From an uncultured Dehalococcoidia bacterium (lineage in GTDB: Bacteria; Chloroflexota; Dehalococcoidia; SM23-28-2), in assembly GCA_964512285.1 (NCBI GenBank), contig CAZEJO010000002.1, positions 32,392 to 96,391 on the forward strand: a stretch of DNA of 64,000 bases, read 5' to 3'. A program made the translations under genes and the position numbers. The notes under the pieces are model-generated. The model did not search any database. It was not told the DNA's origin and saw only the letters and a list, made by a program, of their open reading frames with translations. This document shows, piece after piece, positions 3,727 to 46,585 of the stretch. Numbering within the stretch: the first letter of the stretch is position 1; each line of letters opens with the position of its first letter.

Positions 3727-3729
3727 CGG

Positions 3730-4863: not shown

Positions 4864-4876
4864 GCTCCAATTCCCC

Positions 4877-5803: not shown

Positions 5804-5813
5804 GGGCAGCCCC

Positions 5814-6665: not shown

Positions 6666-6677
6666 GCCACCACCCCC

Positions 6678-8167: not shown

Positions 8168-8176
8168 GAGAAGCCT

Positions 8177-10222: not shown

Positions 10223-11003
10223 CGGACAAGCGGTCATCATCCTGGAGAACGTTTCCAAGCGCTACTTCCTCCACCCGCACCGCGTGAGGGAGTTGAAAAG
10301 GGCCATTTTGCATCTGCCGACCTTCTTGAAGACCAATCGGGCCAGGCAGCCCTTCTGGGCGCTCAGAGATGTCTCTCTTACCATCCGCCGGGGCGAGAGT
10401 GTGGGGATCATCGGCCCCAACGGCGCCGGCAAGAGCACCCTGCTGCGGATCGTCTCCCGCCTTGCGCCTCTAACGAAGGGAAAGCTCTCGGTGCGGGGGC
10501 GCGTCTCGCCCCTACTAGAGCTCGGAGCGGGTTTCCATGCTCAGATCAGCGGACGGGATAATGCCGTGCTCAACGCCGTTCTCCTGGGCCTGTCACGTAA
10601 GGAGGCCCAGGAGAAACTGCCGGAGATAGTGGAGTTCTCGGAGCTGGGGAATTTCATCGACCAGCCCATGCGCACCTACTCGTCCGGAATGTACGTGCGC
10701 CTTGGCTTCGCCGTGGCCGTCCACGTCAAGCCGGAGATCCTGCTCGTCGACGAAGTGCTAGCGGTGGGCGACGCTGACTTCCAGCGCAAGTGCTTCGACC
10801 ACATCGAGAAGCTGCGCCAGAGCAAGGCCACCATCGTCCTGGTGAGCCACGACCTGGAGAACGTGAAGCGATTCTGCGACCGGGCTGTCCTCCTCAACCA
10901 CGGGGCCATCGCCGCCGAGGGGGAGCCGCAGGAGGTGGTGGACGAATACCTGTCGAGCCACTTCGAGTTCTCAGCAGGAGCACAGGAAGCCGGCGATGAG
11001 TGA
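10206..11003 (+). CDS. wzt: Polysaccharide ABC exporter ATP-binding protein (Wzt/TagH), short form without a C-terminal carbohydrate-binding domain.
   Basis: Walker A GPNGAGKST, ABC signature YSSGM, Walker B LLVDEVLAVGD; only 265 aa. Confidence 0.85.
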   Translation: MKSSYNGQAVIILENVSKRYFLHPHRVRELKRAILHLPTFLKTNRARQPFWALRDVSLTIRRGESVGIIGPNGAGKSTLLRIVSRLAPLTKGKLSVRGRVSPLLELGAGFHAQISGRDNAVLNAVLLGLSRKEAQEKLPEIVEFSELGNFIDQPMRTYSSGMYVRLGFAVAVHVKPEILLVDEVLAVGDADFQRKCFDHIEKLRQSKATIVLVSHDLENVKRFCDRAVLLNHGAIAAEGEPQEVVDEYLSSHFEFSAGAQEAGDE

Positions 11004-12090
11004 AGTAGAACTACCCGACGCTGGTGAGCGGATGATACCCGCTTTCCACCACGAAGCCGTGGTCTATGCCGAACATATTGTCCGTTATCTGTTCGCTACT
11101 CGATTCGTCAGAGGCAAGCGAGTCCTGGATGTGGCCAGCGGAGTTGGCTACGGAGCCGATCTCCTGAGGTCGGCTGGGGCAGCCGAGGTTGTGGCCATAG
11201 ATCGGTCGCCGGAAGCAATGAAATACGGGCAGAAGCACCATTCCAAGTTCCAACCAGCCTACGTGGTGGGAGATGTCGAATCGCTACCTGTTCGGAGTAG
11301 CCAATTTGACGTCGTCGTATCCTTTGAGACAATCGAGCACGTCCCTGATTATCAGCGTTTCTTGGCCGAAGTGAAACGCGCTCTGCGCCAGGACGGCCTG
11401 TGCATCGTTTCCACTCCCAATAGAGACGTCTACGTGGAGGGAAACCCGTTTCATACAAAGGAGTTCACGTTCGCCGAGTTTGAGCAAGCGCTGGCGAGCC
11501 ATTTCCGATATGTGGAGACCTTCACGCAAGATGACTGGATAGCGAGCGCTGTCTTCTTTCCCGAAGAGATGGAAGGAGCCGATAAACCGTTGGGGAGGCA
11601 GCCAAGTCTCTTCAAGGCTGTTGGCAAATCGCCATCAGAAACGCTATACATGGTGAGTCTTTGCTCTGACGTGCCCTTACCCGAGGCCGGCCAAGAAGTG
11701 GTGCTGACGAGTCTCTATGAGATGCGTTACTATCTTCAAGAGATCGCTCAACGTGATGCGGAGATCGAAAGGCTCAAGGCCGATCTATCTGAGCGGGTGG
11801 CTATGCTAGCCCAGCGCGACGCTGACCTCGCCGAACGTGACGCGTCACTGGTGGAAAAGGACGCCACCATCAGGGAGTTGAGGGAAGCCTACCAGGACAT
11901 CTGGCGACAAATGGGAGCTCTTCAACGGTCCTTCGGCTATCGCCTCTTGGCGGGATACCGGCGGGCGATACGCCGGCTGTTCCCGCCGGACTCACTGAGG
12001 GGCCGTACGTATCGAAGGTCCGTACAAGGGTTGGAAGCCATTGTGCATCAACTCGCATATCTGCCCCGCCCACGGAGGCCACAGCGGTAG
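10996..12090 (+). CDS. Class I SAM-dependent methyltransferase with a C-terminal coiled coil and basic tail (candidate glycan chain-terminating methyltransferase, WbdD-like logic).
   Basis: Motif I VLDVASGVGYGADLL. Residues ~245-300 form a heptad-like repeat (AQRDAEIERLKADLSERVAMLAQRDADLAERDASLVEKDATIRELREAYQD). Arg-rich C-terminus. Start overlaps the wzt stop. Confidence 0.7.
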   Translation: MSEVELPDAGERMIPAFHHEAVVYAEHIVRYLFATRFVRGKRVLDVASGVGYGADLLRSAGAAEVVAIDRSPEAMKYGQKHHSKFQPAYVVGDVESLPVRSSQFDVVVSFETIEHVPDYQRFLAEVKRALRQDGLCIVSTPNRDVYVEGNPFHTKEFTFAEFEQALASHFRYVETFTQDDWIASAVFFPEEMEGADKPLGRQPSLFKAVGKSPSETLYMVSLCSDVPLPEAGQEVVLTSLYEMRYYLQEIAQRDAEIERLKADLSERVAMLAQRDADLAERDASLVEKDATIRELREAYQDIWRQMGALQRSFGYRLLAGYRRAIRRLFPPDSLRGRTYRRSVQGLEAIVHQLAYLPRPRRPQR

Positions 12091-12101: not shown

Positions 12102-14360
12102 ATGTCTATGCCTCAGAAGCCGGCGACGAACTCCCAGGCCCCTAAAGGCCAGCCGAGAACAGATTCCCGCGATGTGAGTCGCGCGGAACTGACCCGGCTT
12201 CGACGAGGGGTGCGGCTTAGGCAAGAAGAGATCGAGAGCCTGCGGCGCCGCCTAAAAGACGTCGAGAGCTCGACGAGCTGGCGGCTGGTCCAGAGCATGC
12301 GGTCGTTGGTTTGGTTTTTCGCGCCCCCGGGTAGCCTCCGCTATCGGTTAGCGATCCGAGCAGTGCGATGGGCGTATTCGGCTCTGAGTACCCCGCCCAG
12401 CAGGCTAGTGAAGCAGCCGCTGCGCTGGGCAACGCGAGTAGTACGCGGCCGTCCAGCGCCTCAGCCGGAGGAATCGGTCTTCGTGGCACCGCGGGTGCAG
12501 AAGCTACGAGTAGGCTGCTACGGCGAGCATTCCTGGTCAGTGGGAGGAGGCGCGGTGCACGTGCTGAAGTTCCTGCTGGCCCTCTCCGACTTCTACGACG
12601 TGGACCTGCTGCTTCCTCCTGGGACACCTCTGCGAGACAAGCGATGGTACCGGCAGAATTTGAACATCGATATCGGAAACGTTGAGGTTAAGAGGTACAC
12701 TGCGGGCGCGGAGGACAACTACGATATCTGGTTCTCGGCAGCCAATGAGAGCATCGTGCTTGCCAGAACGCCGAAAAGCTTCAACATAGTGTTCTTCCCC
12801 TTCGTCGCTCAGGATGGTAGCGGCATCACGCACATCGCCAACAGCAATTACACCGCTTCCCACGTTAGAGAGCGTTACGGAACTCAGGACGTGATGGTGA
12901 TCTACCCCTCCATCGCTCCTGACGAGCTACCCCCCGGCATAAAGGAGCCCATGATCCTGCACGTCAGCCGTTTCACGCTCCCTTCCGCGTTTGCAGACAA
13001 GGCTCATCTAGCGATGATCCAGGCGTTTAAGCGGTTGTGTAGTCGAGGGTTCGAAGGATGGCGACTGGTTCTCGTGGGAGCTACTCTGGATGAGGGCGAG
13101 GCAGTATACGCTTCCCATCTTGCCCGCCATGCCGGCGGCTTTCCCATCGACATCAGGCCCAACCTATCGGCCGCAGAGCTACGTGACTTGTATTCGAGGG
13201 CTTCGATCTACTGGCATGCCACGGGATTGTCGCTGTCGGAACCGGCGGCTCAGGAACACTTCGGGCTGACTATTCTAGAGGGGATGGCTGCCGGAGCGGT
13301 CCCGATCGTCTTCAACTCCGGAGGACCGCCGGAGATTGTGACCCACGGAGAGCATGGTTTTCTCTTCAATTCAGTTGAGGAGCTTGTGAACCTAACGTGG
13401 GAAGTGGCGACCCAACCTGCCCTCTGGAAGAAGCTCTCTCAACGGGCCAACCGACGCTCCTACGACTTCAGCGATGAGGTGATGAAGGACAAGTTGCTAT
13501 CCACGGTAGCCAAGTCGGAAAAAGTATCCGTTATTATCGGTACTCACAACAATTGCCAATATTTGAGGGGGACACTAGACACTCTCTTTCGCCACACGCC
13601 ACCTGGATTTGAGCTCATCATAGTGAACAACGCTAGTGACGATGGAACGAACATCCTTCTGCAATCTCTCAACTATCCCCACCTGAAGATAATCAACAAC
13701 AAGGCAAATCGTGGCTTTGCCGCATTCAATAATCAGGGCCTGCGCCTCGCCACAAGGCCATACGTTCTCTTCCTCAACGACGATGTGGAGCTTACGCCGG
13801 GGTGGCTGGAGCCATTGATTGAGATGCTAGACCTGCACCCCAAAGTTGGTGCTGTGGGGTCACGTCTCCTGTACCCAGATGGTCGGGTTCAGCATGATGG
13901 GAAGATGTTTCTCGCAAAGGACCGCCTGCCCTACCATGTCAACATCGGTGGACGCCCTGGCGAGGACGAAAGACCGGTGGAGGTCGATACGCTGACGGCG
14001 GCTTGCCTCCTTGGACGCAGAGAACTGGTCGGGTTCTCCGAGGACTACCGGCGCGGATACTATGAGGATACCGACATGTGCCTCCGGATCAAAGAGCAAG
14101 GGTATGGCTTGGTCCTACATCGTGGAAGCGTTGTCATACACTACCACGGGATATCGATGGGCAAGAATCAGAGCGCCACAGAACGGGCTCAGGCCAGGAA
14201 CCAACGCCTCTTTTTGAAGCAATGGTCTGCCAAATTCCCGTCGTTAGTCTACATGGCTACGGAAAAGGAGCTTGCCAGCGGCAAGGTGCGCAGCCGGCGG
14301 ATACTGCCCGCTGATGTTTTCTCTCAGAGCTGGCCACTGTCCCACCGCTTGGGGCGCTGA
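12102..14360 (+). CDS. Multidomain glycosyltransferase: N-terminal coiled coil + GT4 + GT2 (candidate polymerase of the ABC-transporter pathway).
   Basis: aa 25-60 coiled coil (RAELTRLRRGVRLRQEEIESLRRRLKDVESS). GT4 motif EHFGLTILEGMAAGAVPIVFNSGGPPEIV. GT2 motif VSVIIGTHNNCQYL...LIIVNNASDDGT...DDVELTPGW. Confidence 0.75.
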   Translation: MSMPQKPATNSQAPKGQPRTDSRDVSRAELTRLRRGVRLRQEEIESLRRRLKDVESSTSWRLVQSMRSLVWFFAPPGSLRYRLAIRAVRWAYSALSTPPSRLVKQPLRWATRVVRGRPAPQPEESVFVAPRVQKLRVGCYGEHSWSVGGGAVHVLKFLLALSDFYDVDLLLPPGTPLRDKRWYRQNLNIDIGNVEVKRYTAGAEDNYDIWFSAANESIVLARTPKSFNIVFFPFVAQDGSGITHIANSNYTASHVRERYGTQDVMVIYPSIAPDELPPGIKEPMILHVSRFTLPSAFADKAHLAMIQAFKRLCSRGFEGWRLVLVGATLDEGEAVYASHLARHAGGFPIDIRPNLSAAELRDLYSRASIYWHATGLSLSEPAAQEHFGLTILEGMAAGAVPIVFNSGGPPEIVTHGEHGFLFNSVEELVNLTWEVATQPALWKKLSQRANRRSYDFSDEVMKDKLLSTVAKSEKVSVIIGTHNNCQYLRGTLDTLFRHTPPGFELIIVNNASDDGTNILLQSLNYPHLKIINNKANRGFAAFNNQGLRLATRPYVLFLNDDVELTPGWLEPLIEMLDLHPKVGAVGSRLLYPDGRVQHDGKMFLAKDRLPYHVNIGGRPGEDERPVEVDTLTAACLLGRRELVGFSEDYRRGYYEDTDMCLRIKEQGYGLVLHRGSVVIHYHGISMGKNQSATERAQARNQRLFLKQWSAKFPSLVYMATEKELASGKVRSRRILPADVFSQSWPLSHRLGR

Positions 14361-14426: not shown

Positions 14427-15707
14427 GTGAGGCTCTGCTTCCTCATGTACCACGGCAGCATGTACTCTGGCGGGCAGGGCATCTATCTTCATTACCTGAC
14501 CCGCGAACTGGCCCGCTTGGGCCACGAGGTGCACGTCATCGCCGGCCCTCCCTATCCCGTCATGGCCGAGGGTGTTCAGGTACACCCCCTGGAGAGCTTT
14601 AGCTGGCTCCGCTACCTGGAAGCGCGGCAGGAGTTCCTGGCCAGGTCCAACCCCCTGAAGTTCTTCTATCCGCTAAACCTGTTCGAGCTCACCACCACCC
14701 GCGTCGGCATCTTGCCCCTGATGTTCACCTTCAGCCTGCGGGCGGTGGCCAAGTTCCAGGAGCTGCACCGGCATGAGCCCTTCGACCTGGTTCACGACAA
14801 CCAGGGCCTGGGCATCGGCCTGTTGCTGATGAAGAGCTTCGGCGTGCCGATCGTGGCCACCATCCACCAGCCCTTGTCAGTAGACATGCGCAACGCAGTC
14901 GCCCAAGCTGAGGGTTCGCTCGAGAAGATCCGTCGCGCGGCCTACTACTACCCCCTCTTCATGCAGGAATTCGTCGCCCGCCGCCTGGACGAGATCATCA
15001 CCGTATCGGAGGCATCAGCCAGCATGGTGGAGCTCGCCTTCGGCATCCCTAGAGCACGGATGAAGGTGATCTACAACGGCATTGATACGGAGGTGTTCCG
15101 TCCCTTGAAGGTGTCGAAGGAGCGCAATAGCATTATCTACGTAGGCAATTCGGAGGACCGCAACAAGGGCGCCGTCTATCTCCTCCAGGCGTTGCGCCAC
15201 CTACGCGACAGCACCGACTACCACCTGACCCTTGTCGATCGGCCGCGCCAGGAGCTGAAGCTAGTTCCCCGCCTGTTGCGCCGCCACGACCTGAGCACTC
15301 GCGTTCGCTTCACCGGGCGCGTTACCACGCCCCAACTGGTGCGCCACTACTGCCGCGCTCAGATGAGTGTCTGCCCCTCCCTGTACGAAGGGTTTGGCCT
15401 GCCCGCCGCCGAGGCCATGGCCTGCGGCCTGCCGGTGGTAGCCACCTCCGGCGGGGCGCTGCCCGAGGTGGTAGAGGACGGCGTCACCGGCATCCTCGTG
15501 CCGCCAGCCGATGCCCGTGCCCTGGCCGAGGCCATGGACAACCTCATGAGAGACGCCCAACTGCGGCAGCGAATGGGGCAGGCGGGCAGGGAGAGGATCC
15601 TGGAGAAGTTCAGTTGGCGGAAGGCTGCTTTGCAGACCGAGGCCGTCTACCAGCAGGTGTGCCAGCCGAGTCCGGCTGCGGCGTCAAAGCCTGTAACCGC
15701 ATCGTAG
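14427..15707 (+). CDS. Glycosyltransferase family 4.
   Basis: EGFGLPAAEAMACGLPVVATSGGALPEVVEDGVTGILVPP. Confidence 0.8.
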   Translation: MRLCFLMYHGSMYSGGQGIYLHYLTRELARLGHEVHVIAGPPYPVMAEGVQVHPLESFSWLRYLEARQEFLARSNPLKFFYPLNLFELTTTRVGILPLMFTFSLRAVAKFQELHRHEPFDLVHDNQGLGIGLLLMKSFGVPIVATIHQPLSVDMRNAVAQAEGSLEKIRRAAYYYPLFMQEFVARRLDEIITVSEASASMVELAFGIPRARMKVIYNGIDTEVFRPLKVSKERNSIIYVGNSEDRNKGAVYLLQALRHLRDSTDYHLTLVDRPRQELKLVPRLLRRHDLSTRVRFTGRVTTPQLVRHYCRAQMSVCPSLYEGFGLPAAEAMACGLPVVATSGGALPEVVEDGVTGILVPPADARALAEAMDNLMRDAQLRQRMGQAGRERILEKFSWRKAALQTEAVYQQVCQPSPAAASKPVTAS

Positions 15708-15926
15708 CAAGGCTCCAGCCGATCCAGAAGGCCACCGAGAGAACCCCCAGGCTACCCACCAGAAGAGGGGCAGCCAGCGCCCAGTAGCTGCGCCTTCGCA
15801 CTCCCTCCAGCAAGGTGGCTGCGATAGCCAGAGTCGTCCCGCAGATGACGACCCCGTACAGGCGCGACCTGTCCGGCCTCGAACTTAGCCCTACCATCTC
15901 CGCCATAGCACCCTGAGATAGAAAAA

Positions 15927-15975
15927 GCTAGCGTCCCCAGTAGAACTCGAACCCACAATCGCCTGGTCCGAAGTA
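15927..15975 (-). pseudogene. Degenerate copy of the 3' half of tRNA-Arg (T-arm + acceptor 3' strand), with no matching 5' half.
   Basis: 49 bp are ~90% identical to 19741..19790 (ctagcgYccccRgYagRactcgaacccacaaYcgcctggtccgaag). The minus-strand sequence folds as a T-arm GTGGG/TTCGAGT/TCTAC plus TGGGGAC, but no complementary acceptor 5' strand is present upstream. Confidence 0.45.
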
Positions 15976-16011: not shown

Positions 16012-16246
16012 ACTTCAAGGCGAAATCGCAAGGCGAAAACCTACCACCGTCCCCTCCACGAGCCACTCGATGGCGTCTGGTTGCAGAGAGGGCAACCTAT
16101 CTCCTTTTGCGCTATACTTGGGGGAACGACGAGCGCAGCATGGTGCGCCCCTACAGCGTGGAGCCACCTGGAGCGGCTAGAGGGGGCCATCGGCGCCCAC
16201 GGCTCCGGCGAGACGCAGGAAGAATAGCAGGACCTGGGAGAAGACA

Positions 16247-17041
16247 ATGAAGCTGACATCCTTGTTACGCCGCGTCCGGAGAGCTACTCAGCGTCCTTCC
16301 GTGCATCCAGATTCCCCCTTGGACATCGACATCAAGGCCGAGGCCTCAAAACTGCACTGGTACCACTGCATCAAGCTCGCGCCGGGCTACACAACTCCGG
16401 GGATAGCAGGTTGGTCAGCGGATACATCCGGCTGGGAAAAGAAGTATCTGTTTCCCTCTGCCAAGGAGCTGCGCGGCAAATCTTTGCTGGACATCGGCAC
16501 CATGAACGGGTTCTTCGCCTTTGAAGCGGAGAGGAGAGGCGCCTCCCCTGTGGTGGCTATAGATCGGGATCCTCCCGGCTTCCCTGACGCGAGGGAGGCC
16601 TTCAATTTCGCCGCCCGAGCTCTCGAGTCCCGCGTCACCTATCGGGTACGCTCCGTCTACGACCTCGAACCCACAGATTCCGGCACGTTCGATTTCGTCC
16701 TAATGTACGGAGTCCTGTACCACTTGAAGTTCCCGTTGTATGGCCTGTACCGAGCGGCTAGCGTATGCCGTGACGTCTTTCTCCTCGAGACTCACGTCAC
16801 TTTGAAGGATGATTACTCAAGGCCGATGATGCTCTTCTACCCCGGCAATGAGCTTAACGACGAGCCGACAAACTGGTGGGGACCAAACACACGCTGCGTC
16901 GATGCCTTCGTGGAGCATCTGGGATTCCGCATTGAGAAGCGCCTCACTCATCAACAGGATGTCGCTGGCCTCGCGCCAGCTCGCTACACCGTGTGCTGTC
17001 GCCGTGTCCGGCCGACCCCTCCGCCCTTCAGCGAACTCTAG
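16247..17041 (+). CDS. Class I SAM-dependent methyltransferase-like protein.
   Basis: WYHCIKLAPGYTTPG...GKSLLDIGTMNGFFAFEA (glycine-rich motif I) ... FDFVLMYGVLYHLKFP. The last 9 codons lie inside a 135-bp repeat shared with the next gene. Confidence 0.5.
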   Translation: MKLTSLLRRVRRATQRPSVHPDSPLDIDIKAEASKLHWYHCIKLAPGYTTPGIAGWSADTSGWEKKYLFPSAKELRGKSLLDIGTMNGFFAFEAERRGASPVVAIDRDPPGFPDAREAFNFAARALESRVTYRVRSVYDLEPTDSGTFDFVLMYGVLYHLKFPLYGLYRAASVCRDVFLLETHVTLKDDYSRPMMLFYPGNELNDEPTNWWGPNTRCVDAFVEHLGFRIEKRLTHQQDVAGLAPARYTVCCRRVRPTPPPFSEL

Positions 17042-17150
17042 CGCCTATGGCGCGTCCTGGTCTAAGTGAGAAGGCATTCCTGAGATCGGGGTGGAGTTGC
17101 CAGCCCCAATCCTTAAGCAAAAAAGCCGCCTTGCGGCGGCAGCGGTAGGC
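17015..17150 (+). repeat. ~135-bp direct repeat, copy 1 (second copy at 19588..19727, ~95% identical).
   Basis: ccggccgacccctccgcccttcagcgaactctagcgcctatggcgcgtcctggtctaagtgagaaRgcaYtcctgagatcggggtggagYtgccagccccaatccttaagcaaWaaagccgccttgcggcggcag. Confidence 0.75.
17119..17140 (-). terminator. Rho-independent terminator-like hairpin oriented for the minus strand (GCCGCC-GCAA-GGCGGC + TTTTTT) inside repeat copy 1.
   Basis: Plus-strand aaaaaagccgccttgcggcggc. The T-run exists only on the minus strand. Confidence 0.45.
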
Positions 17151-17498: not shown

Positions 17499-19652
17499 AT
17501 GCACGGCACACTCTCCAGCGTAGACGAGGTGCGACAGGCTGCATGGCGCCGGGCGTTATCCAACTTCGCTGTGCGGCTATCTCCGCAGCACCCGCTGGTC
17601 GGCCTGGATGCGTTAGTCTTGGGTTTGCTGGCCGCCCTCTCTGCCTATATCACCTATCGGCTGTACGCCTTCACCTACGACGACGTCTACCTGGCCTTCA
17701 CCTACGCACGCAACTTGGTCGAGGGCCATGGGTTCGTCTTCAACGGCGAGGAGATCCTCAGCACCCCTGCGCCCTTGTTCGTCCTCTTGTTGGCCCTGGG
17801 CAATATTGTGGTGCCCGACGTCAGCATTCCGGGCGTCGCCAGCCTCATCAATGGGGCTTCCCTCTTTGCTATGGCCGCCACTCTGTATCTGCTGGGCAGT
17901 CATCTATCGGGGCGGACCGTAGGGTTCGCCGTCGCTGTCCTCTCCCTTTTCAATCCACTGATACTCCATTCTTTTGGCAGCGAGACCCCGTTTTTCCTGG
18001 CCCTGGTCCTGGGCGCCTTCTACACATACCTGACCGGTAGGACGTACCTGCCGGCCTTTCTGCTGGCGATGGCGGCTCTGTGCAGAACGGAGGCGGTTAT
18101 CCCCGGCGTCATCATCCTGGCCCACCTCCTCTATACCAGACGCCGCGCCGCCTTACCTTTTGTGTCTGCTGGCCTTTTGTCGGTGGCGCCCTGGCTGGTC
18201 TTCTCAGGAGTCTATTTCGGCTCTCCTCTCACCAGCTCCTTCGCCGCCAAGCAGGCCCAGGTGAAAGCGGGAGCCGGCTTCGCATCCTTCCTGGAAGGGG
18301 CCAGGGATTGGGTCCCTAACATCATGCTAGATGGCGACGAAAGGTACCTTCTGGCGGCGCCCCTGGTGGGGCTGGGTCTCCTGGTGCTGGCCACTGGGGA
18401 CCGTCGCTGGCTCCTGGTGCTGGCCTGGCCCCTGGCCCAGGCTCTCTTTTATACCCAGCTGGGGATCCACTTCTACTGGTGGTACGCCGCCGCGCCGGGC
18501 CTCGGCCTCAGCATCGTCGCCGGCTTGGCCGTAGGAGTGATCCCCATGGCCTTGAAGATTGTCATCCCCTACGCCCGTGAGAGGGGGGGCAGATTGTTGG
18601 TGCTGCGCGTCGCACAGCCTCAAGAACGGGAATCCTCTCTGCTTCTGCTGGTGTCCATCGCTGGAGCCATCCTGGTGGCGGGCACCGTCGTGGCCTTGGT
18701 CTGGACGGGCCACCATCATCTGACCAGCTTCAAGGACCGGCAGAAAGGCATCAACGATCTCTACACTGCCACCGGCAAATGGCTGCAGGATAACACCCCT
18801 CCGAACGCCTCGCTGGCCTATGCGGAGATCGGCCAGATCTCCTTCTACTCCGACCGCCGGACTATCGACATCCTGGCAGTAGTGACCCCCTCGCAGGTAG
18901 ACCACTTGGCCAAGGCCGATTATCTCTGGCCGTACCTGTGCTACGAACCGGACTACATCCTTTACAACCCCGCGCTTTCCATCTGGAACGGGCAGATCAA
19001 GACCGAGTCGTGGTTCAAGCACTCCTACCGAGAGGTGGCAGCTGTCCGGGTCGCCACGTATCCCTTCCCTATGCATGTGTACGAAAGGCAGCCGGCGGCT
19101 GCGATCCCGTTGCCGGTGGAGGAGGTTGACGTACACCAGACCAAGCTAGACTTGGGCTTTTCCCCCGGGCAGATTGGGGGCGGGAACGTCGTGGGCCAGA
19201 CGTTCCGCTCAAGGCACGACAACCTCTCGGCGGTGGAGGTGGTGTTCGGCAATGTGGGGCTGGGCAACGCGGCCACCATCGTCTTCCACCTTAAGGCGTC
19301 TCCGGTAGGCGAAGACCTGGTGCGGATGGAGGTGGCGGCGGCCGACCTGGAGCCCAATGCCTATTACGCCTTTCGCTTCCCTGCGATTGCCCAGACCAAA
19401 GGGAAGGAGTTCTACTTCTACTTGGAGGCCGTTGAAGCAGCCCCGGGAAACGGCGTCACCGTCTTCGCTCAGTCCGGGAACCCCTATTCCGACGGCAGCC
19501 TCTTTCAAAACCACGGAGCCCGCGAAGGCGACCTCGCTTTCAAGACGCGCTATCGGCTGCCCGATTCAGCCATCGACAACGAATGCCGGGCCAGCCGACC
19601 CCTCCGCCCTTCAGCGAACTCTAGCGCCTATGGCGCGTCCTGGTCTAAGTGA
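17499..19652 (+). CDS. GT-C fold integral membrane glycosyltransferase (PMT/ArnT-like; candidate oligosaccharyl- or glycan-transferase) with a C-terminal soluble domain.
   Basis: ~11-13 TM segments in aa 30-400. First-loop acidic motif YAFTYDDVYLAFTYARNLVEGHGF, as in GT-C families GT39/GT83. ~300-aa hydrophilic C-terminal domain. The track ORF begins at 17298, but the first in-frame ATG preceding the first TM helix is 17499; the true start is uncertain. The last 21 codons lie in repeat copy 2. Confidence 0.6.
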   Translation: MHGTLSSVDEVRQAAWRRALSNFAVRLSPQHPLVGLDALVLGLLAALSAYITYRLYAFTYDDVYLAFTYARNLVEGHGFVFNGEEILSTPAPLFVLLLALGNIVVPDVSIPGVASLINGASLFAMAATLYLLGSHLSGRTVGFAVAVLSLFNPLILHSFGSETPFFLALVLGAFYTYLTGRTYLPAFLLAMAALCRTEAVIPGVIILAHLLYTRRRAALPFVSAGLLSVAPWLVFSGVYFGSPLTSSFAAKQAQVKAGAGFASFLEGARDWVPNIMLDGDERYLLAAPLVGLGLLVLATGDRRWLLVLAWPLAQALFYTQLGIHFYWWYAAAPGLGLSIVAGLAVGVIPMALKIVIPYARERGGRLLVLRVAQPQERESSLLLLVSIAGAILVAGTVVALVWTGHHHLTSFKDRQKGINDLYTATGKWLQDNTPPNASLAYAEIGQISFYSDRRTIDILAVVTPSQVDHLAKADYLWPYLCYEPDYILYNPALSIWNGQIKTESWFKHSYREVAAVRVATYPFPMHVYERQPAAAIPLPVEEVDVHQTKLDLGFSPGQIGGGNVVGQTFRSRHDNLSAVEVVFGNVGLGNAATIVFHLKASPVGEDLVRMEVAAADLEPNAYYAFRFPAIAQTKGKEFYFYLEAVEAAPGNGVTVFAQSGNPYSDGSLFQNHGAREGDLAFKTRYRLPDSAIDNECRASRPLRPSANSSAYGASWSK

Positions 19653-19727
19653 GAAAGCACTCCTGAGATCGGGGTGGAGCTGCCAGCCCCAATCCTTAAG
19701 CAATAAAGCCGCCTTGCGGCGGCAGAT
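19588..19727 (+). repeat. ~135-bp direct repeat, copy 2.
   Basis: See copy 1. Lies immediately 5' of tRNA-Arg on the plus strand, i.e. downstream of the minus-strand tRNA. Confidence 0.75.
19701..19723 (-). terminator. Hairpin terminator downstream of minus-strand tRNA-Arg (GCCGCC-GCAA-GGCGGC + TTTATTG).
   Basis: Plus-strand caataaagccgccttgcggcggc, 22 bp downstream of the tRNA 3' end. Confidence 0.45.
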
Positions 19728-19744
19728 CCGTATCTGAAAGCTAG

Positions 19745-19818
19745 CGCCCCCGGCAGGACTCGAACCCACAACCGCCTGGTCCGAAGCCAGGCGCTCTATC
19801 CAATTGAGCTACGGGGGC
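19745..19818 (-). tRNA. tRNA-Arg (anticodon TCG).
   Basis: Minus-strand GCCCCCG-TA-GCTC-AATTGGATA-GAGC-G-CCTGG-CTTCGGA-CCAGG-CGGTT-GTGGG-TTCGAGT-CCTGC-CGGGGGC-G. Cloverleaf folded by hand: 7-bp acceptor, U33, G37. CCA not encoded. Confidence 0.85.
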
Positions 19819-22353: not shown

Positions 22354-24663
22354 GTGGCTATCAGGGCGCAGGTGGTGGTGCGAGGGATCGTTCAGGGGGT
22401 TGGCTTCCGTCCCTTCGTCTATCGCCTCGCCCAAGAGCACCAGCTTAGCGGCTGGGTCCTCAACTCCACTCAGGGCGTGGTCATCGAGGTGGAGGGGCCG
22501 CAGCAACGAATAGCTGGCTTTATCGCCGGGCTCAAGGCCGATCCCCCTCCCCAGGCCGTCATCGAAAGAGTAGAGACCAACCTCCTTCCGCCTGTTGGCT
22601 ACTCGTCCTTCATCGTCGAGGCCAGCCGCGAGGGCGATGAGTTCGTCCTGATCTCCCCCGACATTTGCATCTGCGCCGACTGCCTCAATGAGCTCCGGAA
22701 CTCCCACGACCGCCGTTGGGCCTATCCCTTCATAAACTGCACCAACTGCGGCCCCCGCTTCACCATCATCAGCGACATCCCCTACGACCGACCCAAGACG
22801 ACAATGAGCGCCTTCACCATGTGTCCTCGCTGCGATGAGGAGTACCACAACCCCGCTGACAGGCGCTTCCACGCTCAGCCCAACGCCTGCGCCCTGTGCG
22901 GCCCCCGGCTGGAGCTGGCGACGAATGGCACTCGCCCCGCTGAAGCGCCGCCGCGAGAAGAGCCCATCGAGAGCGTCCGTCGCCTGCTGACGGAGGGGGC
23001 GATTGTGGCGGCGAAAGGGCTGGGGGGCTTCCACCTGGCCTGCGATGCCACGAATGCGGGCGCGGTGGCAACCCTGCGCGAGCGCAAGCAGCGCGTGGAC
23101 AAGCCCTTCGCCGTCATGTCCCTGGACGTGGACACCGTCCGCCGCTACTGCGAGGTCAGTGAAGGCGAGGCTCAGCTCCTCGAGTCGCCGGCGCGGCCCA
23201 TCGTGCTCCTGCGACGCAAGCCGGGCTCGCCCATCGCCGCTGAGGCAGCCCCCGCCAACAATAACCTGGGGGTCATGCTGCCCTACACGCCCCTGCACTA
23301 CCTCCTGCTGAGCGATGGCGCGACACCCGCGCCTCTGGCCCTGGTGATGACCAGCGGCAACATGAGCGAGGAGCCTATCGCCATTGGCAACCAGGAGGCG
23401 CTGGAGCGCCTGAGCCCCCTGGCCGACTACTTCCTTCTCCACGACCGCGATATCTACGTCCGCTGCGACGACTCAGTCACCCGCCTCTTTCGAGGCAGAG
23501 AGGCGATGCTCCGCCGCTCCCGCGGCTACGCGCCCTTCCCCGTCCGCCTGAACCTGGAGCTGAAGGAGATCCTGGCCTGCGGAGCTGATCTCAAGAACAC
23601 CTTCTGCCTCACCAAGGGCACCTATGCCTTCCTCAGCCAGCACATCGGCGACATGGAGAACTACGAGACCTTCGCCGGCTATCAAGCGGCCATCGAGCAC
23701 TTCCAGCGGCTCTTTCGGGTGAACCCGCGGGCGGTGGCCTATGACCTTCACCCCGATTATCTGGCCACCCGCTACGCCCTGGAGCTCGCGGAGACCCAGG
23801 GCTTACGGCTGGTGCCCGTGCAGCACCACCACGCCCACGTTGTGAGCTGCATGGCCGAGAACGGCGTGGACGGAGAGGTCATCGGCGTGGCCCTCGACGG
23901 CACCGGCTACGGCACGGACGGCCACATCTGGGGCGGCGAGTTCCTCCTGGCCGACTGCCGCCGCTTTCGCCGCCTAGGTCACCTCAAGTATGTGCCCCTG
24001 CCCGGCGGCGATGCAGCCACCAAACGGCCCTACCGTATGGCAGTAAGCCATCTTCTGAGCGCCTTCGGTGAGGAGGCCCTGGACCTGCCGCTGGAGCTGT
24101 GGAAGCAAATCGAACCGCCGGAGCTGGCCCTGATACGCCGCATGATGGCGGCGAAAGTGAACTGCCCTCTCACCTCTAGCTGCGGCCGCCTGTTCGACGC
24201 CGTATCGGCCCTGCTGGGCGTGCGCGGCGTGGTCAACTACGAAGGGCAGGCGGCCATCGAGCTGGAGATGCTGACCGCCGAAGGCGTGGATGAAGTCTAC
24301 GACTGGAGCCCACCTTCAAGCTATCCTATAATTATTGATCCGGCGCCTGTGCTGCAGGGAGTGGTTTCGGACCTGAGGCGAGGGGTGGATCGAGCTGTGA
24401 TCTCGGCCAAGTTCCACAACACCATCGCCGACGTCATTGTCGGCGTGAGCCGGGTTGCCAGAGAAAGGACGGGCATCAACCGAGTGGCCCTTAGCGGCGG
24501 CGTATTCCAGAATATGTACCTTCTTGGCCGCACCCTGGACGGACTGGAGAGCCGGGGCTTCGAGGCCCTCATCCACCACCAGGTGCCCACCAACGACGGC
24601 GGCATCGCCCTCGGCCAGGCGGTGATCGCCAACGCCCGTCTGTCACGGAGGAAGAAGCGCTAG
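22354..24663 (+). CDS. hypF: Carbamoyltransferase HypF ([NiFe] hydrogenase maturation).
   Basis: Acylphosphatase domain (VRGIVQGVGFRPFVYRLA), two CxxC-X18-CxxC zinc fingers, YrdC and Kae1-like domains; 769 aa. Confidence 0.9.
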   Translation: MAIRAQVVVRGIVQGVGFRPFVYRLAQEHQLSGWVLNSTQGVVIEVEGPQQRIAGFIAGLKADPPPQAVIERVETNLLPPVGYSSFIVEASREGDEFVLISPDICICADCLNELRNSHDRRWAYPFINCTNCGPRFTIISDIPYDRPKTTMSAFTMCPRCDEEYHNPADRRFHAQPNACALCGPRLELATNGTRPAEAPPREEPIESVRRLLTEGAIVAAKGLGGFHLACDATNAGAVATLRERKQRVDKPFAVMSLDVDTVRRYCEVSEGEAQLLESPARPIVLLRRKPGSPIAAEAAPANNNLGVMLPYTPLHYLLLSDGATPAPLALVMTSGNMSEEPIAIGNQEALERLSPLADYFLLHDRDIYVRCDDSVTRLFRGREAMLRRSRGYAPFPVRLNLELKEILACGADLKNTFCLTKGTYAFLSQHIGDMENYETFAGYQAAIEHFQRLFRVNPRAVAYDLHPDYLATRYALELAETQGLRLVPVQHHHAHVVSCMAENGVDGEVIGVALDGTGYGTDGHIWGGEFLLADCRRFRRLGHLKYVPLPGGDAATKRPYRMAVSHLLSAFGEEALDLPLELWKQIEPPELALIRRMMAAKVNCPLTSSCGRLFDAVSALLGVRGVVNYEGQAAIELEMLTAEGVDEVYDWSPPSSYPIIIDPAPVLQGVVSDLRRGVDRAVISAKFHNTIADVIVGVSRVARERTGINRVALSGGVFQNMYLLGRTLDGLESRGFEALIHHQVPTNDGGIALGQAVIANARLSRRKKR

Positions 24664-24665
24664 CC

Positions 24666-24896
24666 ATGTGCCTGGCCATACCGGCGCGGGTTGTCCAGAT
24701 CGACGAAGGTCTAGGCCTGGTGGAGCTAGGGGGAGTCGTGCGTGAAGCGAGCTTCATGCTCCTGCCCGATGCCCAGGTGGGCGACTACGTTCTCCTCCAC
24801 GCTGGCTACGCCCTCCAGAAAGTGGACGAGGCGGAGGCCGAGGAGACCATCCGTCTGTTGACCGAGCTGGCCGAGGACGGGAGGGCAGAAGCATAG
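24666..24896 (+). CDS. hypC: Hydrogenase maturation factor HypC.
   Basis: N-terminal MCLAIP motif; 76 aa. Confidence 0.85.
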   Translation: MCLAIPARVVQIDEGLGLVELGGVVREASFMLLPDAQVGDYVLLHAGYALQKVDEAEAEETIRLLTELAEDGRAEA

Positions 24897-25984
24897 TGGT
24901 GCGCTACGTGCGCGAGTTCCACGATCCTGCCGCCGCCCGCGGGCTGGCGGCGACGATCGAGCGCATAACCAACCGCTCGGTGAACCTGATGGAGGTATGT
25001 GGCACTCATACCGTGACCATCTTCCGCCACGGCATTCGCCAGCTCCTGCCGCCGCCGCTGAGCATGCTCTCGGGGCCCGGCTGCCCAGTCTGCGTCACCA
25101 CCAACGCCGATATCGACAAGGCCATCGCCCTGGCCGAGCAGTCGAAGGTAACCCTGGCCACCTTCGGCGACATGATGAAGGTGCCGGGGAGCTACCAGAG
25201 CCTCCAGCAGGTCAAGGCCGATGGCAGCGACGTGCGGGTCGTCTATTCTCCTCGCGATGCCGTCTGCATGGCCCGCGACAACCCCCGCCAGCCCGTCATA
25301 TTCTTCGCCGTGGGGTTCGAGACCACCGTCCCCACCATCGCCGCCGCGCTCCTGGAGGCCGAAGCGCTGGGGCTCAAGAACTTCTACCTGATCTCCGTGC
25401 ACAAGCTCATCCCGCCCGCCATGCTCGCTCTACTGGAGGCGCGGGAGGTGCGCATCGACGGCTTCATCTGCCCCGGCCACGTGAGCGTGGTCATCGGCTC
25501 GCAGCCCTACGAGTTCATCCCCCAACAGTACGGCGTTCCCTGCGTGATCACCGGCTTCGAGCCGTTGGACGTCCTCCAGGGCATCGAGATGCTGCTGCGC
25601 CAGATCGCCGAGGGCAGAGCAGAGGTGGAGATCCAGTATCGCCGAGGGGTGCGGCCGGAGGGTAATCCCCTGGCGCGCGAGCTAGTATCGCGGGCGTTCG
25701 AGACCAGCGACGCCGACTGGCGCGGGCTGGGCTGCATCCCCAACAGCGGGCTGAAGCTGCGAGCGGAGTACAAGCGCTTCGACGCCGAGCAGGCCTTCGC
25801 CATCAACCCTCCGCCCACCAAGGAGCACAAGGGCTGCCTCTGCGGCGATATCCTGCGGGGAGTCAAGACGCCGCCGGAGTGCCCCCTGTTCGCCGAAACC
25901 TGCACCCCCGAGAGGCCGGTAGGCCCCTGCATGGTCTCCAGCGAGGGCACCTGCGCCGGCTGGTATCAATACGGGTCGCGCTAA
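24896..25984 (+). CDS. hypD: Hydrogenase maturation factor HypD.
   Basis: CGTH, GPGCPVC and FETT motifs; C-terminal CxxC cluster; 362 aa. Confidence 0.9.
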   Translation: MVRYVREFHDPAAARGLAATIERITNRSVNLMEVCGTHTVTIFRHGIRQLLPPPLSMLSGPGCPVCVTTNADIDKAIALAEQSKVTLATFGDMMKVPGSYQSLQQVKADGSDVRVVYSPRDAVCMARDNPRQPVIFFAVGFETTVPTIAAALLEAEALGLKNFYLISVHKLIPPAMLALLEAREVRIDGFICPGHVSVVIGSQPYEFIPQQYGVPCVITGFEPLDVLQGIEMLLRQIAEGRAEVEIQYRRGVRPEGNPLARELVSRAFETSDADWRGLGCIPNSGLKLRAEYKRFDAEQAFAINPPPTKEHKGCLCGDILRGVKTPPECPLFAETCTPERPVGPCMVSSEGTCAGWYQYGSR

Positions 25985-25992
25985 GGAAGGCT

Positions 25993-27033
25993 ATGGCAAA
26001 GAGAAACGTGGCAGGAACCAGCAAGATCCTCCTGGCTCATGGCAGCGGCGGCCGCCTCAGCCACGAGCTGGTGGCCAAGGAGTTCGTTCCGCCCTGGGCC
26101 AACCCCATCCTCGACCAGCTCAACGACTCGGCCGTGTTCGCCTTGAGCCCGGATGGCACCGGCCCCCGCCTAGCTTTCACCACCGACTCCTACGTGGTGA
26201 AGCCCCTCTTCTTCAAAGGGGGCGACATCGGCCGCCTGGCGGTCTGCGGCACAGTCAACGACCTGGCCATGGTGGGAGCGAAGCCCCTGTACCTTTCGGC
26301 CAGCTTCGTCATCGAGGAGGGGCTGTCCCTGGCCAACATGAGAGCAGTGGTGAAGTCGATGCGCCAGGCGGCGGCTGAGGCGGGCGTGCAGATCGTGACC
26401 GGCGATACGAAGGTGGTGGAGGGAGGCGCCGCCGACGGCCTCTTCGTCAACACCGCCGGCCTGGGCCTGGTGCCGCCTGGGGTAGAGATCGGCGGCAGCA
26501 GGGCCCGCGTGGGCGACGCGATCATCCTCTCGGGCAGTATCGGCGACCACGGCATCGCCGTGATCTCTCAGCGGGAGGGACTGGAGTTCGAGGCGCCGGT
26601 GGACAGCGACGTCGCCCCCCTGAACGGTCTGGTGGCAGCCATGCTGGCGGTCAGCACCAACGTCCGCGTTCTGCGCGACCCCACTCGTGGCGGCCTGGCA
26701 ACCTCCCTCAACGAGATAGCCCAGCAGTCCGGGGTTGGCATCCAGATCGATGAACCAACGATCCCAGTCAAGGATGGCGTATGGGGTGCCTGCGAGATGC
26801 TGGGCTTCGACCCCCTGTACGTGGCCAACGAAGGCAAGCTGGTCACTATCGTCGAGCCTAAAGACGCTGAAAGAATCCTGAGCGTTATGCGAAAGACAAA
26901 GTATGGTGAAGAGGCAGCGATCATCGGGGAGGTAGTCGCCGAGCCGCAGGGCAAGGTTCTGATGAAGACAACTATCGGCGGCACGCGCATCGTCCACATG
27001 CTGGTGGGCGAGATGCTGCCGCGTATCTGTTGA
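25993..27033 (+). CDS. hypE: Hydrogenase maturation factor HypE (carbamoyl dehydratase).
   Basis: PurM-like fold; MAKRNVAGTSKILLAHGSGG start (RBS AAGGAAGG). The track ORF N-extension overlaps hypD. C-terminal ...PRIC. Confidence 0.9.
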   Translation: MAKRNVAGTSKILLAHGSGGRLSHELVAKEFVPPWANPILDQLNDSAVFALSPDGTGPRLAFTTDSYVVKPLFFKGGDIGRLAVCGTVNDLAMVGAKPLYLSASFVIEEGLSLANMRAVVKSMRQAAAEAGVQIVTGDTKVVEGGAADGLFVNTAGLGLVPPGVEIGGSRARVGDAIILSGSIGDHGIAVISQREGLEFEAPVDSDVAPLNGLVAAMLAVSTNVRVLRDPTRGGLATSLNEIAQQSGVGIQIDEPTIPVKDGVWGACEMLGFDPLYVANEGKLVTIVEPKDAERILSVMRKTKYGEEAAIIGEVVAEPQGKVLMKTTIGGTRIVHMLVGEMLPRIC

Positions 27034-27042
27034 GGAGCGGCG

Positions 27043-29080: not shown

Positions 29081-29103
29081 CGCCGTGCCCCTCGATTGAC
29101 AGA

Positions 29104-29144
29104 ATGTAACCTTTCTGTTACCTGGTGTAACCCGCTATGTTACC
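29104..29144 (+). promoter_or_regulatory. Four direct repeats TGTAACC / TGTTACC / TGTAACC / TGTTACC at 10-12 bp spacing (candidate OmpR-family regulator binding array) upstream of the hdr-mvh operon.
   Basis: Read from the sequence: aaTGTAACCtttcTGTTACCtggTGTAACCcgctaTGTTACC. Located 24-64 bp after the regulator stop and 85 bp before the hdrD-like start. Confidence 0.4.
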
Positions 29145-29228
29145 TCTTTCGTGTAGGATTTCCCAGGGGAACCTTAGCTGAAGGCTCAGCCGGCTCCTGT
29201 CGGCTAGAGCGGAAATGGACGGCGATAA

Positions 29229-30380: not shown

Positions 30381-30382
30381 CC

Positions 30383-32365: not shown

Positions 32366-32381
32366 GGAGGCGCAGTTAGCC

Positions 32382-32858: not shown

Positions 32859-32904
32859 GGCTGAGACGAAGGCCGAGAGCTCGAGGGCATCAGGGAGGCC
32901 TAGC

Positions 32905-46583: not shown

Positions 46584-46585
46584 TG

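Follow-up and report, generated by a model that had tools for sequence, protein, structure and literature searches.

What does the large membrane protein encoded at the end of a rhamnose/ABC-exporter glycan locus in an uncultured Dehalococcoidia bacterium do, and on which molecule does it act? The gene lies in a 64-kb stretch of DNA (64,000 nucleotides), referred to here as the window, meaning the whole stretch analysed. A first-pass annotation had described its product as a GT-C membrane enzyme that would transfer a finished lipid-linked glycan to an acceptor, with a PMT/ArnT-like activity as the alternative. Our analyses indicate that the gene is an uncharacterised member of a well-known enzyme kind and a distant relative of mycobacterial AftB, and that its most likely role is single-sugar addition to an exported rhamnose-containing surface polymer.

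The gene and its glycan locus

17499-19652, + strand: GT-C glycosyltransferase gene, AftB-like, 717 aa (ORF, homologues, AF2 model, Foldseek, AftB profile match)

The ATG at 17499 is the start common to close homologues of the gene. An alternative, longer ORF that starts with TTG at 17298 shows no coding conservation, since a related locus (L001) carries a stop 22 codons upstream. With 26 word-indexed homologues and, at E≤1e-3, matches to the representatives of 24,579 (~24,600) clusters at 50% identity, the ORF did not arise by chance. No Pfam or NCBIfam model covers this family. Direct scans with the protein gave sub-threshold matches to PIG-U (E 0.003, below the cut-off) and AZOBR_p60025 (E 0.001), which do not amount to membership and which we read as echoes of the common fold. 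A literature search on the family or on AZOBR_p60025 found nothing, a plasmid collection held only two weak matches (both annotated "hypothetical protein"), a second homologue search returned no informative names, and a scan of GTDB genomes for relatives gave only 4 loci. A second 717-aa ORF in the window (60357-62510), considered as a paralogue, was found to encode an HdrD-like Fe-S protein instead.

The gene is the last of a conserved rhamnose/ABC-exporter locus with the order WecA-like, GT2/GT4, rml, Wzm/Wzt, GT4-GT2, and GT4, and this gene order bears out its earlier placement directly downstream of an ABC-pathway glycan locus. The locus and the neighbouring tRNA gene comprise the following features:

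1709-2890, + strand: WecA/MraY-type initiating transferase (Pfam)
2845-3726, - strand: GT2, no membrane helices (Pfam)
3730-4863, - strand: GT4, no membrane helices (Pfam)
4877-5983, - strand: GT2, no membrane helices (Pfam)
5814-9259, - strand: four dTDP-rhamnose pathway genes, rmlD, C, B, and A-like (83% nucleotide identity to the L001 genes)
9413-10222, + strand: Wzm-like ABC-2 permease (Pfam ABC2_membrane)
10206-11003, + strand: Wzt-like ATPase (Pfam ABC_tran)
10996-12090, + strand: coiled-coil methyltransferase (Pfam; coiled-coil tail resembling the L001 methyltransferase)
12102-14360, + strand: GT4-GT2 fusion, 752 aa (Pfam)
14427-15707, + strand: GT4 (Pfam)
19744-19818, - strand: tRNA-Arg(TCG), the conserved downstream neighbour of the GT-C gene (ARAGORN)

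The L001 rml products carry RmlD_sub_bind, dTDP_sugar_isom, Epimerase/GDP_Man_Dehyd, and NTP_transferase domains. The synteny rml-Wzm-Wzt-GT-GT-C is preserved in L001 and L002, and relatives at about 35-40% identity occupy similar loci, those at 35-38% identity having Wzm/Wzt beside the gene in L004 and Wzt in L025 and L026. Overall, linkage of the family to ABC-exporter and rml loci was observed in at least four lineages and down to 35% identity. Among the scanned ORFs of the 64-kb window we found no polyprenyl-phosphate sugar synthase (GtrB/DPM1-like or UbiA-like), no GtrA/MATE-type flippase, no DprE1/E2-like gene, and no ligase (LCP, Wzy_C/WaaL/PglL), and the window holds only the one GT-C gene.

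The sequence between the GT4 gene and the tRNA gene also contains a methyltransferase gene, a duplicated repeat, and a fragment of a tRNA gene:

15924-15973, - strand: degraded, partial copy of tRNA-Arg covering its 3' half (90% identity to 19737-19786)
16247-17041, + strand: class-I SAM methyltransferase, 264 aa, strain-variable cassette gene (Pfam, NCBIfam)
17008-17142, + strand: copy R1 of the repeat, where the methyltransferase cassette ends on its 3' side
19591-19725, + strand: repeat copy R2, which gives the GT-C gene its last 20 codons, stop codon, and terminator hairpin

The gene at 16247-17041 had been proposed as a partner of the GT-C gene. Its product is a genuine class-I methyltransferase, yet the gene is no conserved partner: strains whose GT-C proteins are at least 95% identical carry unrelated methyltransferases in the slot, and other methyltransferases fill it in L001, L019, L020, and L029. 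Nor do the methyltransferases near family members form a single partner family, as they have only generic class-I similarity in common. A variable slot beside a nearly identical GT-C gene points to strain-level diversification of surface glycans in uncultured Dehalococcoidia/Anaerolineae.

Alignments of the relatives end at 19597, and the R2-encoded tail of the protein was modelled with pLDDT <50. The repeat was also considered as a structured RNA and rejected, as there was no Rfam match and the fold z-score was -0.5. The methyltransferase and GT-C genes are together bracketed by the full tRNA-Arg and its partial copy; the latter was not called by ARAGORN and is absent from L019. The idea that the GT-C gene is part of a genomic island between these copies was rejected because relatives without the partial copy retain the gene between the GT4 gene and the tRNA-Arg.

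Fold, topology, and relationship to AftB

An AF2 model of the protein (pLDDT 80.4, pTM 0.78) was compared to the PDB with Foldseek. All of the 27 top matches were GT-C enzymes (E 7e-9 to 4e-5) and none was a non-glycosyltransferase, in agreement with the fold claimed in the first-pass annotation. The best match was ALG12 and the second-best ArnT (E 3e-8); EmbA/B/C, AftA, and OST catalytic subunits were also among the fold matches, and WaaL- or PglL-type structures were absent from the 50 matches listed. Of these top 27, AftB had the lowest rmsd (6.1-7.7 Å) and, at 16-17%, the highest identity. Since ALG12 and ALG9 usually count as GT-C_B, the fold search does not by itself settle the subclass. 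The protein is a member of the GT-C superfamily, and its class, GT-C_A, is assigned via its homology to AftB. The main parts of the protein are as follows, where A1 is the alignment of the close family and A5 is a profile of 28 diverse relatives:

17598-18707, + strand: membrane module, residues 34-403, 11 predicted transmembrane helices (DSSP of the model, hydropathy, loop charges)
17679-17684, + strand: DD motif (TYDDV, D61-D62) opening the first outside loop, D62 putatively catalytic (alignments A1 and A5)
17982-18251, + strand: region with E162 (GSET), R196 and E198, and K251 (FGSP..AAKQAQ loop) (invariant columns)
18753-19088, + strand: conserved outside alpha/beta "cap" domain, ~residues 419-530 (invariant columns, domain model)
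19116-19568, + strand: C-terminal beta-sandwich, lectin/CBM-like, ~residues 540-690 (Foldseek)

The model and hydropathy give 11 transmembrane helices, like AftB, and the earlier count of 13 was too high. The other topological claims held. Directly after TM1 comes the DD motif, which alignment pairs with the catalytic DD of AftB on the periplasmic side; in A1 both of its aspartates are invariant, and of the two only D61 varies, slightly, in A5. The N-terminus and the loops at 212-216 and 356-378 are arginine-rich, which fits an N-in orientation with the motif on the outside. The extracytoplasmic C-terminal domain of ~300 aa that had been described corresponds to a region of ~310 aa (~residues 404-717). 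Its cap domain (model pLDDT 85) has the motif AYxEIGQI..R..IDxLGLVTP..PDY, in which Y441, E443, R453, D457, and D485 are invariant in A1. Foldseek matches of the beta-sandwich were to the Cwp84 lectin-like domain, phage baseplate and fibre proteins, BcsB, and a phloem lectin. The sandwich is missing in one relative (P0016), and many family members of ~500 aa align to the first ~520 profile positions only.

Searches of the PDB with the single sequence or the A1 profile gave nothing relevant. When the A5 profile was searched against 177,635 PDB sequences there was one significant match, to AftB (9dlf_C, E 1.1e-4, AftB residues 36-323). This match is weak, at 24 bits and with membrane-protein composition bias, and stops short of AftB R372; there was a weak second aligned stretch between the cap domain and the AftB periplasmic domain (residues 538-596). 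D62, E162, R196, and K251 are the membrane-core residues that are invariant across the 28 diverse members, and E198 is invariant within the close subfamily. Alignment with hmmalign paired residues of the GT-C protein and AftB as D61/D61, D62/D62, E162/E172, R196/R221, E198/E223, K251/K278, and D457/D541, equivalences which derive from a profile alignment and not a structural superposition. In the same weak alignment, AftB T91 and T274 fall beside the conserved T89 and T245/S247, and R372 is outside the aligned region. AftB cannot do without D62 for catalysis, and it contacts the donor through R221 at the phosphate and E172 at the sugar (PMC12041299). The NCBIfam equivalog model for AftB, NF041481 (cut-off 1050 bits), did not match the window protein at E≤1, and matched two relatives (P0040, 25 bits; P0056, 19 bits) locally at the DD region. 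Judged by these profile-level similarities, the GT-C protein is a remote homologue of mycobacterial AftB.

Possible roles at the outer face of the membrane

We hypothesize that the protein works on the outer side of the membrane, drawing on a polyprenyl-phosphate sugar as donor to decorate or lengthen an exported polymer, as AftB, GT136, and GacL do, and we regard this as probable. Fold, AftB homology, residue conservation, and synteny are shown by the analyses above; from them we infer the class of donor, the nature of the acceptor, and what each residue would do. A rhamnose-containing polymer would be built on a polyprenyl carrier at the cytoplasmic face by the WecA-like initiator, the GT2/GT4 enzymes, and the rml gene products, and then exported by Wzm/Wzt. 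At the outer leaflet the GT-C protein would pick up a polyprenyl-monophosphate sugar, its phosphate held by R196 and K251 and its sugar by E162 and the T245-S247 loop. D62 may act as base or nucleophile in moving a single sugar onto the exported polymer. The membrane core and the conserved cap domain would hold this polymer between them, and the lectin-like beta-sandwich may help to bind it. That the donor is likely a lipid-phosphate-linked sugar is suggested by the conservation of the AftB phosphate (R221) and sugar (E172) residues. The distribution of homologues across Chloroflexota, Bdellovibrionota, and one contig binned as archaeal fits an acceptor that is carried by the locus and is not envelope-specific. 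Points against this reading are that the scanned window ORFs include neither a donor synthase nor a flippase, that the AftB match is weak, and that several distant family members are encoded away from glycan loci.

Transfer of a finished polymer is an unlikely role. In that reading the protein would be an en-bloc ligase or oligosaccharyltransferase that moves the polyprenyl-PP-linked polymer, after ABC export, to a secreted protein, such as one of the S-layer, or else to a membrane lipid. Consistent with this are its place as the final gene of the locus, the lack of a ligase, donor synthase, or flippase among the scanned window ORFs, and the OST catalytic subunits among its fold matches. In addition, a secreted beta-rich protein of ~600 aa, a possible acceptor, adjoins homologues in four loci (L004, L008, L025, and L030), but it is absent from the window. 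The specific features of such enzymes are also lacking. The WWDxG motif is in 0 of 28 family members, and a search of the window protein for W[WY]D.G found none, the lone WW (residue 327) being within a membrane helix. At E≤0.01 there was no Pfam match to STT3 (PF02516), Wzy_C (PF04932), PMT (PF02366), or PMT_2 (PF13231), and the archaeal STT3 model TIGR04154 reached only E 0.19. On these Pfam/NCBIfam scans and the motif search, membership of the OST, Wzy_C, PMT, and ArnT families was rejected. Further, the sole sequence-level relative with a solved structure, AftB, is a single-sugar transferase whose donor-binding residues are kept here; close homologues occur across organisms of differing envelope types; and the tandem paralogue in L004, the second family member on the L026 contig, and the extra GT-C genes found within these same loci would be unusual for a ligase. 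The PglB/PglL/WsaB-like transfer favoured by the first-pass annotation thus found no specific supporting feature.

A bolder version, which we consider a long shot, is that the AftB-like family is the missing outside "ligase" for ABC-exported polysaccharides where the usual acceptors and ligases are absent; the hosts could be Chloroflexota without LCP or WaaL and some archaea. If true, whole polymers would be transferred to the secreted beta-rich protein or a membrane lipid by a new class of polysaccharyl-transferase on an AftB scaffold.

Similarly doubtful is an ArnT/PMT-like role, in which one polyprenyl-phosphate sugar would be transferred to a membrane lipid or to Ser/Thr of a secreted protein, and the position in a glycan locus would reflect co-regulation or chance. 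The donor class and mechanism would be the same as for decoration of a polymer, and in that respect the first-pass alternative was closer than its main proposal. ArnT ranked second in the fold search, and some distant family members (L014, L015, and L018) are outside glycan loci. The likeness to ArnT is at the fold level only, however, and there was no match to PMT, PMT_2, or MIR; the conserved linkage to exporter and rml genes across lineages also argues against chance placement. The lectin-like C-terminal domain, moreover, resembles the carbohydrate-binding modules of polysaccharide-modifying GT-Cs (PMC11127046).

In a sub-variant of the main reading, the enzyme would go beyond simple decoration and, like AftA or Emb, prime a second glycan domain on the exported polymer or extend it processively. 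This is consistent with the Emb and AftA fold matches and with the several GT-C genes clustered in L004, L007, L008, and L025 (GT87 neighbours occur in L008 and L025), as in arabinan synthesis, but it is improbable for the window, where a single GT-C gene without a local donor pathway argues for limited modification.

Comparison with known systems

The oligosaccharyltransferases STT3, PglB, and AglB (GT66) resemble the window protein in their GT-C_A fold, in the acidic motif that follows TM1, and in the large domain that their C-terminal part forms outside the membrane. They differ in the fold of that domain, the WWDxG motif, and the STT3 Pfam match, and the donor-site residues of the window protein match the AftB pattern.

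GacL/Gtr-type GT-Cs act in three-component systems on streptococcal rhamnose polysaccharides and in O-antigen glucosylation in Shigella and Salmonella. Their logic is the one proposed here: outside the membrane, a GT-C takes sugar from an undecaprenyl-phosphate carrier and attaches it to the rhamnan product of an ABC-dependent pathway. In those systems, however, a GtrB-like synthase and a flippase are in or near the locus, whereas in our family such partners were found only for a distant member (L013), in an operon with a GtrB-like GT2 (with two C-terminal membrane helices) and a 7-TM protein; in L010, synthase/flippase-type partners adjoin a different GT-C, a DUF6541 protein. A sequence relationship between GacL/Gtr and the window protein was not detectable.

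GT136 ORF12 of Citrobacter youngae O1 carries out a three-component pentofuranose addition, decorating the polymer of an ABC-transporter-type O-antigen locus (PMC11127046). By description its architecture is like that of the window protein: the number of membrane helices is 11, TM1 is followed by a small helical domain and has a catalytic Asp beside it, and the C-terminal part is a beta-rich carbohydrate-binding module. Its key residues, D31, E34, H106, R349, and Y350, form a pattern other than D62/E162/R196/K251 (PMC11127046). Its gene has those for a phosphoribose synthase and a MATE flippase as neighbours, unlike in the window.

The closest system is AftB (GT89; PDB 9dlf/9dlh), the terminal beta-(1->2)-arabinofuranosyltransferase of Mycobacteriales (PMC12041299). 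It differs in that the similarity is at the profile level only (E 1e-4) with no R372 equivalent identified, in the additional lectin-like beta-sandwich of the window protein, and in the host, here Chloroflexota, with decaprenyl-phospho-arabinose pathway genes absent from the scanned window ORFs. Both have the GT-C_A fold, 11 membrane helices, a C-terminal outside cap domain with the motif RxxID..GL..P / PD[WY], and a DD motif with the catalytic (here putative) Asp directly after TM1, and the window protein has equivalents of E172, R221, E223, and K278. AftB takes its sugars one at a time from a polyprenyl-monophosphate donor, and the polymer that receives them is ABC-exported and WecA/rhamnose-primed. 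GT-Cs that face outward and elaborate ABC-exported glycans are a well-known kind of enzyme; this large family is itself without a characterised member. The link to AftB by sequence, fold, and active-site residues provides thousands of membrane proteins now labelled "hypothetical" with an annotation that can be tested, names D62, E162, R196, and K251 as candidate residues, and suggests that AftB-type chemistry is widespread beyond Mycobacteriales.

Gene context of the GT-C protein

The gene for the GT-C protein closes the glycan locus, and is followed by a tRNA-Arg gene and mgtE. The genes of the locus are as follows.

1709-2890: WecA/MraY-type initiator
2845-5983 (-): GT2, GT4 and GT2 genes
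5814-9259 (-): four rml-type genes
9413-11003: Wzm and Wzt
10996-12090 (+): coiled-coil methyltransferase
12102-14360: GT4-GT2 fusion
14427-15707: GT4
16247-17041: methyltransferase, 264 aa
17499-19652 (+): GT-C, ATG start, 717 aa

The first-pass annotation had tied the GT-C gene to this locus, and that connection is upheld by its terminal position and by L001, the locus of an 87%-identical relative, which keeps the order rml, Wzm, Wzt, GTs, methyltransferase, GT-C, tRNA-Arg, mgtE. A longer, TTG-initiated frame also exists, from 17298 (+). The ATG at 17499 is the likely start, because this Met is common to close homologues and L001 has a stop 22 codons upstream. Judged from its sequence, the gene is real given its homologues: 26 were found by word index, six of them, at 84-94% identity, from Dehalococcoidia/Anaerolineae metagenome bins, and an exhaustive profile search reached 24,579 cluster representatives at E ≤ 1e-3, with 1,876 of them passing E ≤ 1e-30.

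Contexts were also compared for relatives at 33-40% identity (L004, L005, L008, L010, L025 and L026). L004 has rml genes, Wzm/Wzt and a tandem GT-C paralogue, and a Wzt gene is nearby in L025 and L026, and the L026 contig carries another member of the family. The GT-C homologue has a GT87 gene directly upstream in L008 and L025, and adjoins a double-GT2 protein in L005 and L010. A distant member (L013) shares its operon with genes for a 7-TM protein, a methyltransferase and a GtrB-like GT2 that has two membrane helices at its C-terminus, the arrangement of a three-component system for glycosylation outside the membrane. Among the window ORFs that were scanned, there was no GtrB-like synthase, flippase, UbiA-like enzyme or second GT-C.

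Several features of these regions were noted in passing. A beta-rich protein of ~600 aa adjoins the GT-C homologue in L004 (12163-13917), L008 (7557-9359), L025 (6859-8691) and L030 (7497-9392). It is secreted or N-terminally anchored, has an internal duplication and lacks a Pfam match; the L004 and L008 proteins are 41% identical. The window encodes nothing that corresponds to it. The protein could serve as an acceptor or as a partner that binds the glycan. The L010 homologue (10004-11860, 40% identical) is on a 132-kb contig of GC 31-38% binned as a Candidatus Methanoperedenaceae archaeon, a placement that could reflect horizontal transfer or a binning error. Its neighbours include a 2,281-aa multi-domain glycosyltransferase as well as the double GT2, and a separate set comprises a DUF6541 protein, a GtrB-like GT2 and an LPG_synthase_TM protein. 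Elsewhere in the window, 22354-35453 and 44525-49140 hold HypF, HypD, a HypE-like AIR-synthase-type protein, two NiFe hydrogenase large-subunit genes and Hdr/CCG-type Fe-S proteins. These are ordinary anaerobe energy metabolism, unrelated to the GT-C; the Fe-S protein at 60357-62510 is also of 717 aa, by coincidence.

Fold, topology and relationship to AftB

The AlphaFold2 model of the GT-C protein, built with 17 sequences, had a mean pLDDT of 80.4 and a pTM of 0.78. The GT-C fold proposed from sequence was confirmed by its best 27 Foldseek matches to solved structures, all 27 of which were GT-C enzymes (ALG12, ArnT, STT3, AftB, EmbA/B/C, AglB, PglB and ALG9); DPY19, AftA, PimE and PIG-U ranked lower. 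By DSSP assignment of the model and by hydropathy, there are 11 membrane helices, in place of the 13 counted earlier. By charge counts, the N-terminus and loops 212-216 (YTRRR) and 356-378 are Arg-rich and the first long loop is acidic, which supports a predicted N-in, C-out topology. The TYDDV motif (D61-D62), invariant in the 17 closer sequences, comes right after helix 1; this position, the N-in charge pattern and alignment with the periplasmic DD of AftB all favor the outward-facing DD motif that had been suggested. Four membrane-core residues, D62, E162, R196 and K251, are invariant across 28 diverse members.

Beyond helix 11 the chain forms an alpha/beta domain of strong conservation (about residues 419-530), with the motif AYxEIGQI..R..IDxLGLVTP..PDY, and then a beta-sandwich (about residues 540-690). 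Modelled on their own, the last 291 residues had a pLDDT of 85.4. Structural matches of the sandwich were the lectin-like domain of Cwp84, phage baseplate and fibre proteins, BcsB and phloem lectin. This domain is optional in the family, being absent from family protein P0016, and many members of ~500 aa match only the first ~520 profile positions.

For the window protein and ten diverse relatives, no Pfam or NCBIfam model covered the sequence and matches were sub-threshold only, and neither a single-sequence query nor a close-family profile retrieved anything relevant from the PDB sequence set. A profile of the 28 diverse members, searched against 177,635 distinct PDB sequences, gave one significant match, residues 36-323 of Mycobacterium chubuense AftB (9dlf_C, E 1.1e-4). 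Re-alignment in hmmalign gave the residue equivalences below.

Residue equivalences (hmmalign), window protein to AftB
D61, D62: D61, D62
E162: E172
R196: R221
E198: E223
K251: K278
D457, P464, P484 (cap domain): D541, P548, P569

AftB combines 11 membrane helices with a periplasmic cap. Its DD motif contributes D62, which is essential for catalysis and lies at the periplasmic tip of the first juxtamembrane helix; the phosphate of the donor is bound by R221 together with R372, and the arabinofuranose is in contact with E172 and T274 (PMC12041299). Three lines agree: the fold search, in which AftB had the lowest rmsd and highest identity among the GT-C structure matches, the profile match, and local matches of the NCBIfam AftB model on family proteins P0040 and P0056. 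The window protein is therefore a GT-C_A enzyme remotely related to AftB, and its DD motif faces outward. It is not an AftB orthologue. The AftB equivalog model did not match it, and no counterpart was found for R372, which lies beyond the aligned part of AftB.

The methyltransferase slot and the direct repeat

The 264-aa gene at 16247-17041 encodes a class-I methyltransferase. It had been considered a partner of the GT-C, a role contradicted by strains that have a GT-C of at least 95% nucleotide identity but carry other genes in the slot separating GT4 from GT-C. Three unrelated methyltransferase genes occupy it in these strains.

16057-17133 (window): slot with the 264-aa methyltransferase gene
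399-1548 (L019): coiled-coil methyltransferase
1136-2224 (L020): coiled-coil methyltransferase
1848-2705 (L029): unrelated 285-aa methyltransferase

The coiled-coil proteins are of 358-390 aa and also fill the slot in L001, a more distant relative than L019 and L020 (about 83% nucleotide identity). The slot is a strain-variable, hypervariable cassette site, which suggests strain-level variation in glycan methylation. The window's own coiled-coil methyltransferase, right after wzt, is of 364 aa with a long C-terminal coiled coil, a layout presumably like that of WbdD-type chain terminators. Its 26%-identical counterpart in relatives is located elsewhere, just upstream of the GT-C. The final ~55 residues of the 364-aa protein are similar to the N-terminus of the 752-aa GT4-GT2 protein. 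A 98-aa ORF (15610-15906, -) with two predicted membrane helices and no Pfam match runs convergently to the GT4 gene and overlaps its end; this ORF is kept in L019 (29-406, -) and L020 (689-1042, -) with mostly conservative substitutions.

A direct repeat of 135 nt (17008-17142 and 19591-19725, 96% identical) forms the 3' end and terminator hairpin of both the methyltransferase and GT-C genes, which read it in different frames. Since alignments of relatives end at 19597 and restart at 19697, the second copy took the place of the original 3' end of the GT-C gene. The native tail ends in ...RRSR; here there are 20 different residues, modelled as disordered. The ~80-nt repeat core is also in L029 (about 2840-2917), between the unrelated methyltransferase and the GT-C. 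The repeat had no Rfam match, and its predicted fold stability was not unusual. Separately, a decayed partial copy of the 3' half of tRNA-Arg(TCG) at 15924-15973 (-), 90% identical over 50 nt to the full gene at 19744-19818, is missing in L019, a nearly identical relative. It has the appearance of an att-type duplication, but the GT-C that the two copies enclose is ancestral to the locus.

Probable function of the GT-C protein

Our preferred reading, which we consider reasonably probable, is that the GT-C glycosylates the Wzm/Wzt-exported polymer outside the membrane, using a polyprenyl-monophosphate sugar. The polymer would be built inside and then exported. The fold, homology, residue conservation and synteny are shown by the data, and the donor class, acceptor and residue roles are inferred. 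D62 would serve as the base or nucleophile; the phosphate of the donor would be bound by R196 and K251, and its sugar by E162 and the T245-S247 loop. The acceptor polymer would be held by the cap and lectin-like domains.

The first-pass annotation had preferred en-bloc transfer of the finished glycan, as by an oligosaccharyltransferase. The gene's place at the end of the locus fits such a role, as do the lack of ligase or donor genes seen in the window and the secreted beta-rich neighbour in four loci. However, none of the 28 members contains WWDxG, STT3 and Wzy_C models gave no match, the active site follows the AftB pattern, related loci carry a tandem paralogue and extra GT-C genes, and homologues are spread over Chloroflexota, Bdellovibrionota and a contig binned as archaeal, and we regard this role as unlikely. 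That the enzyme instead modifies a lipid or protein with no connection to the locus, in the manner of ArnT or PMT, appears similarly doubtful. Some distant members outside glycan loci might point that way, but the lectin-like domain and the conservation of linkage to ABC/rml loci argue against it. A variant of the preferred reading, in which the enzyme primes or processively extends a second glycan domain, seems quite improbable.

The GT-C is best read as an AftB-like single-sugar transferase on an exported polymer, not an oligosaccharyltransferase, and as an unannotated member of an already known enzyme kind. The outside glycosylation proposed for it is the mode of AftB, the Emb proteins, GT136 ORF12 and GacL, and the plan of GT136 ORF12, 11 helices with a C-terminal carbohydrate-binding module (PMC11127046), resembles that of the window protein.
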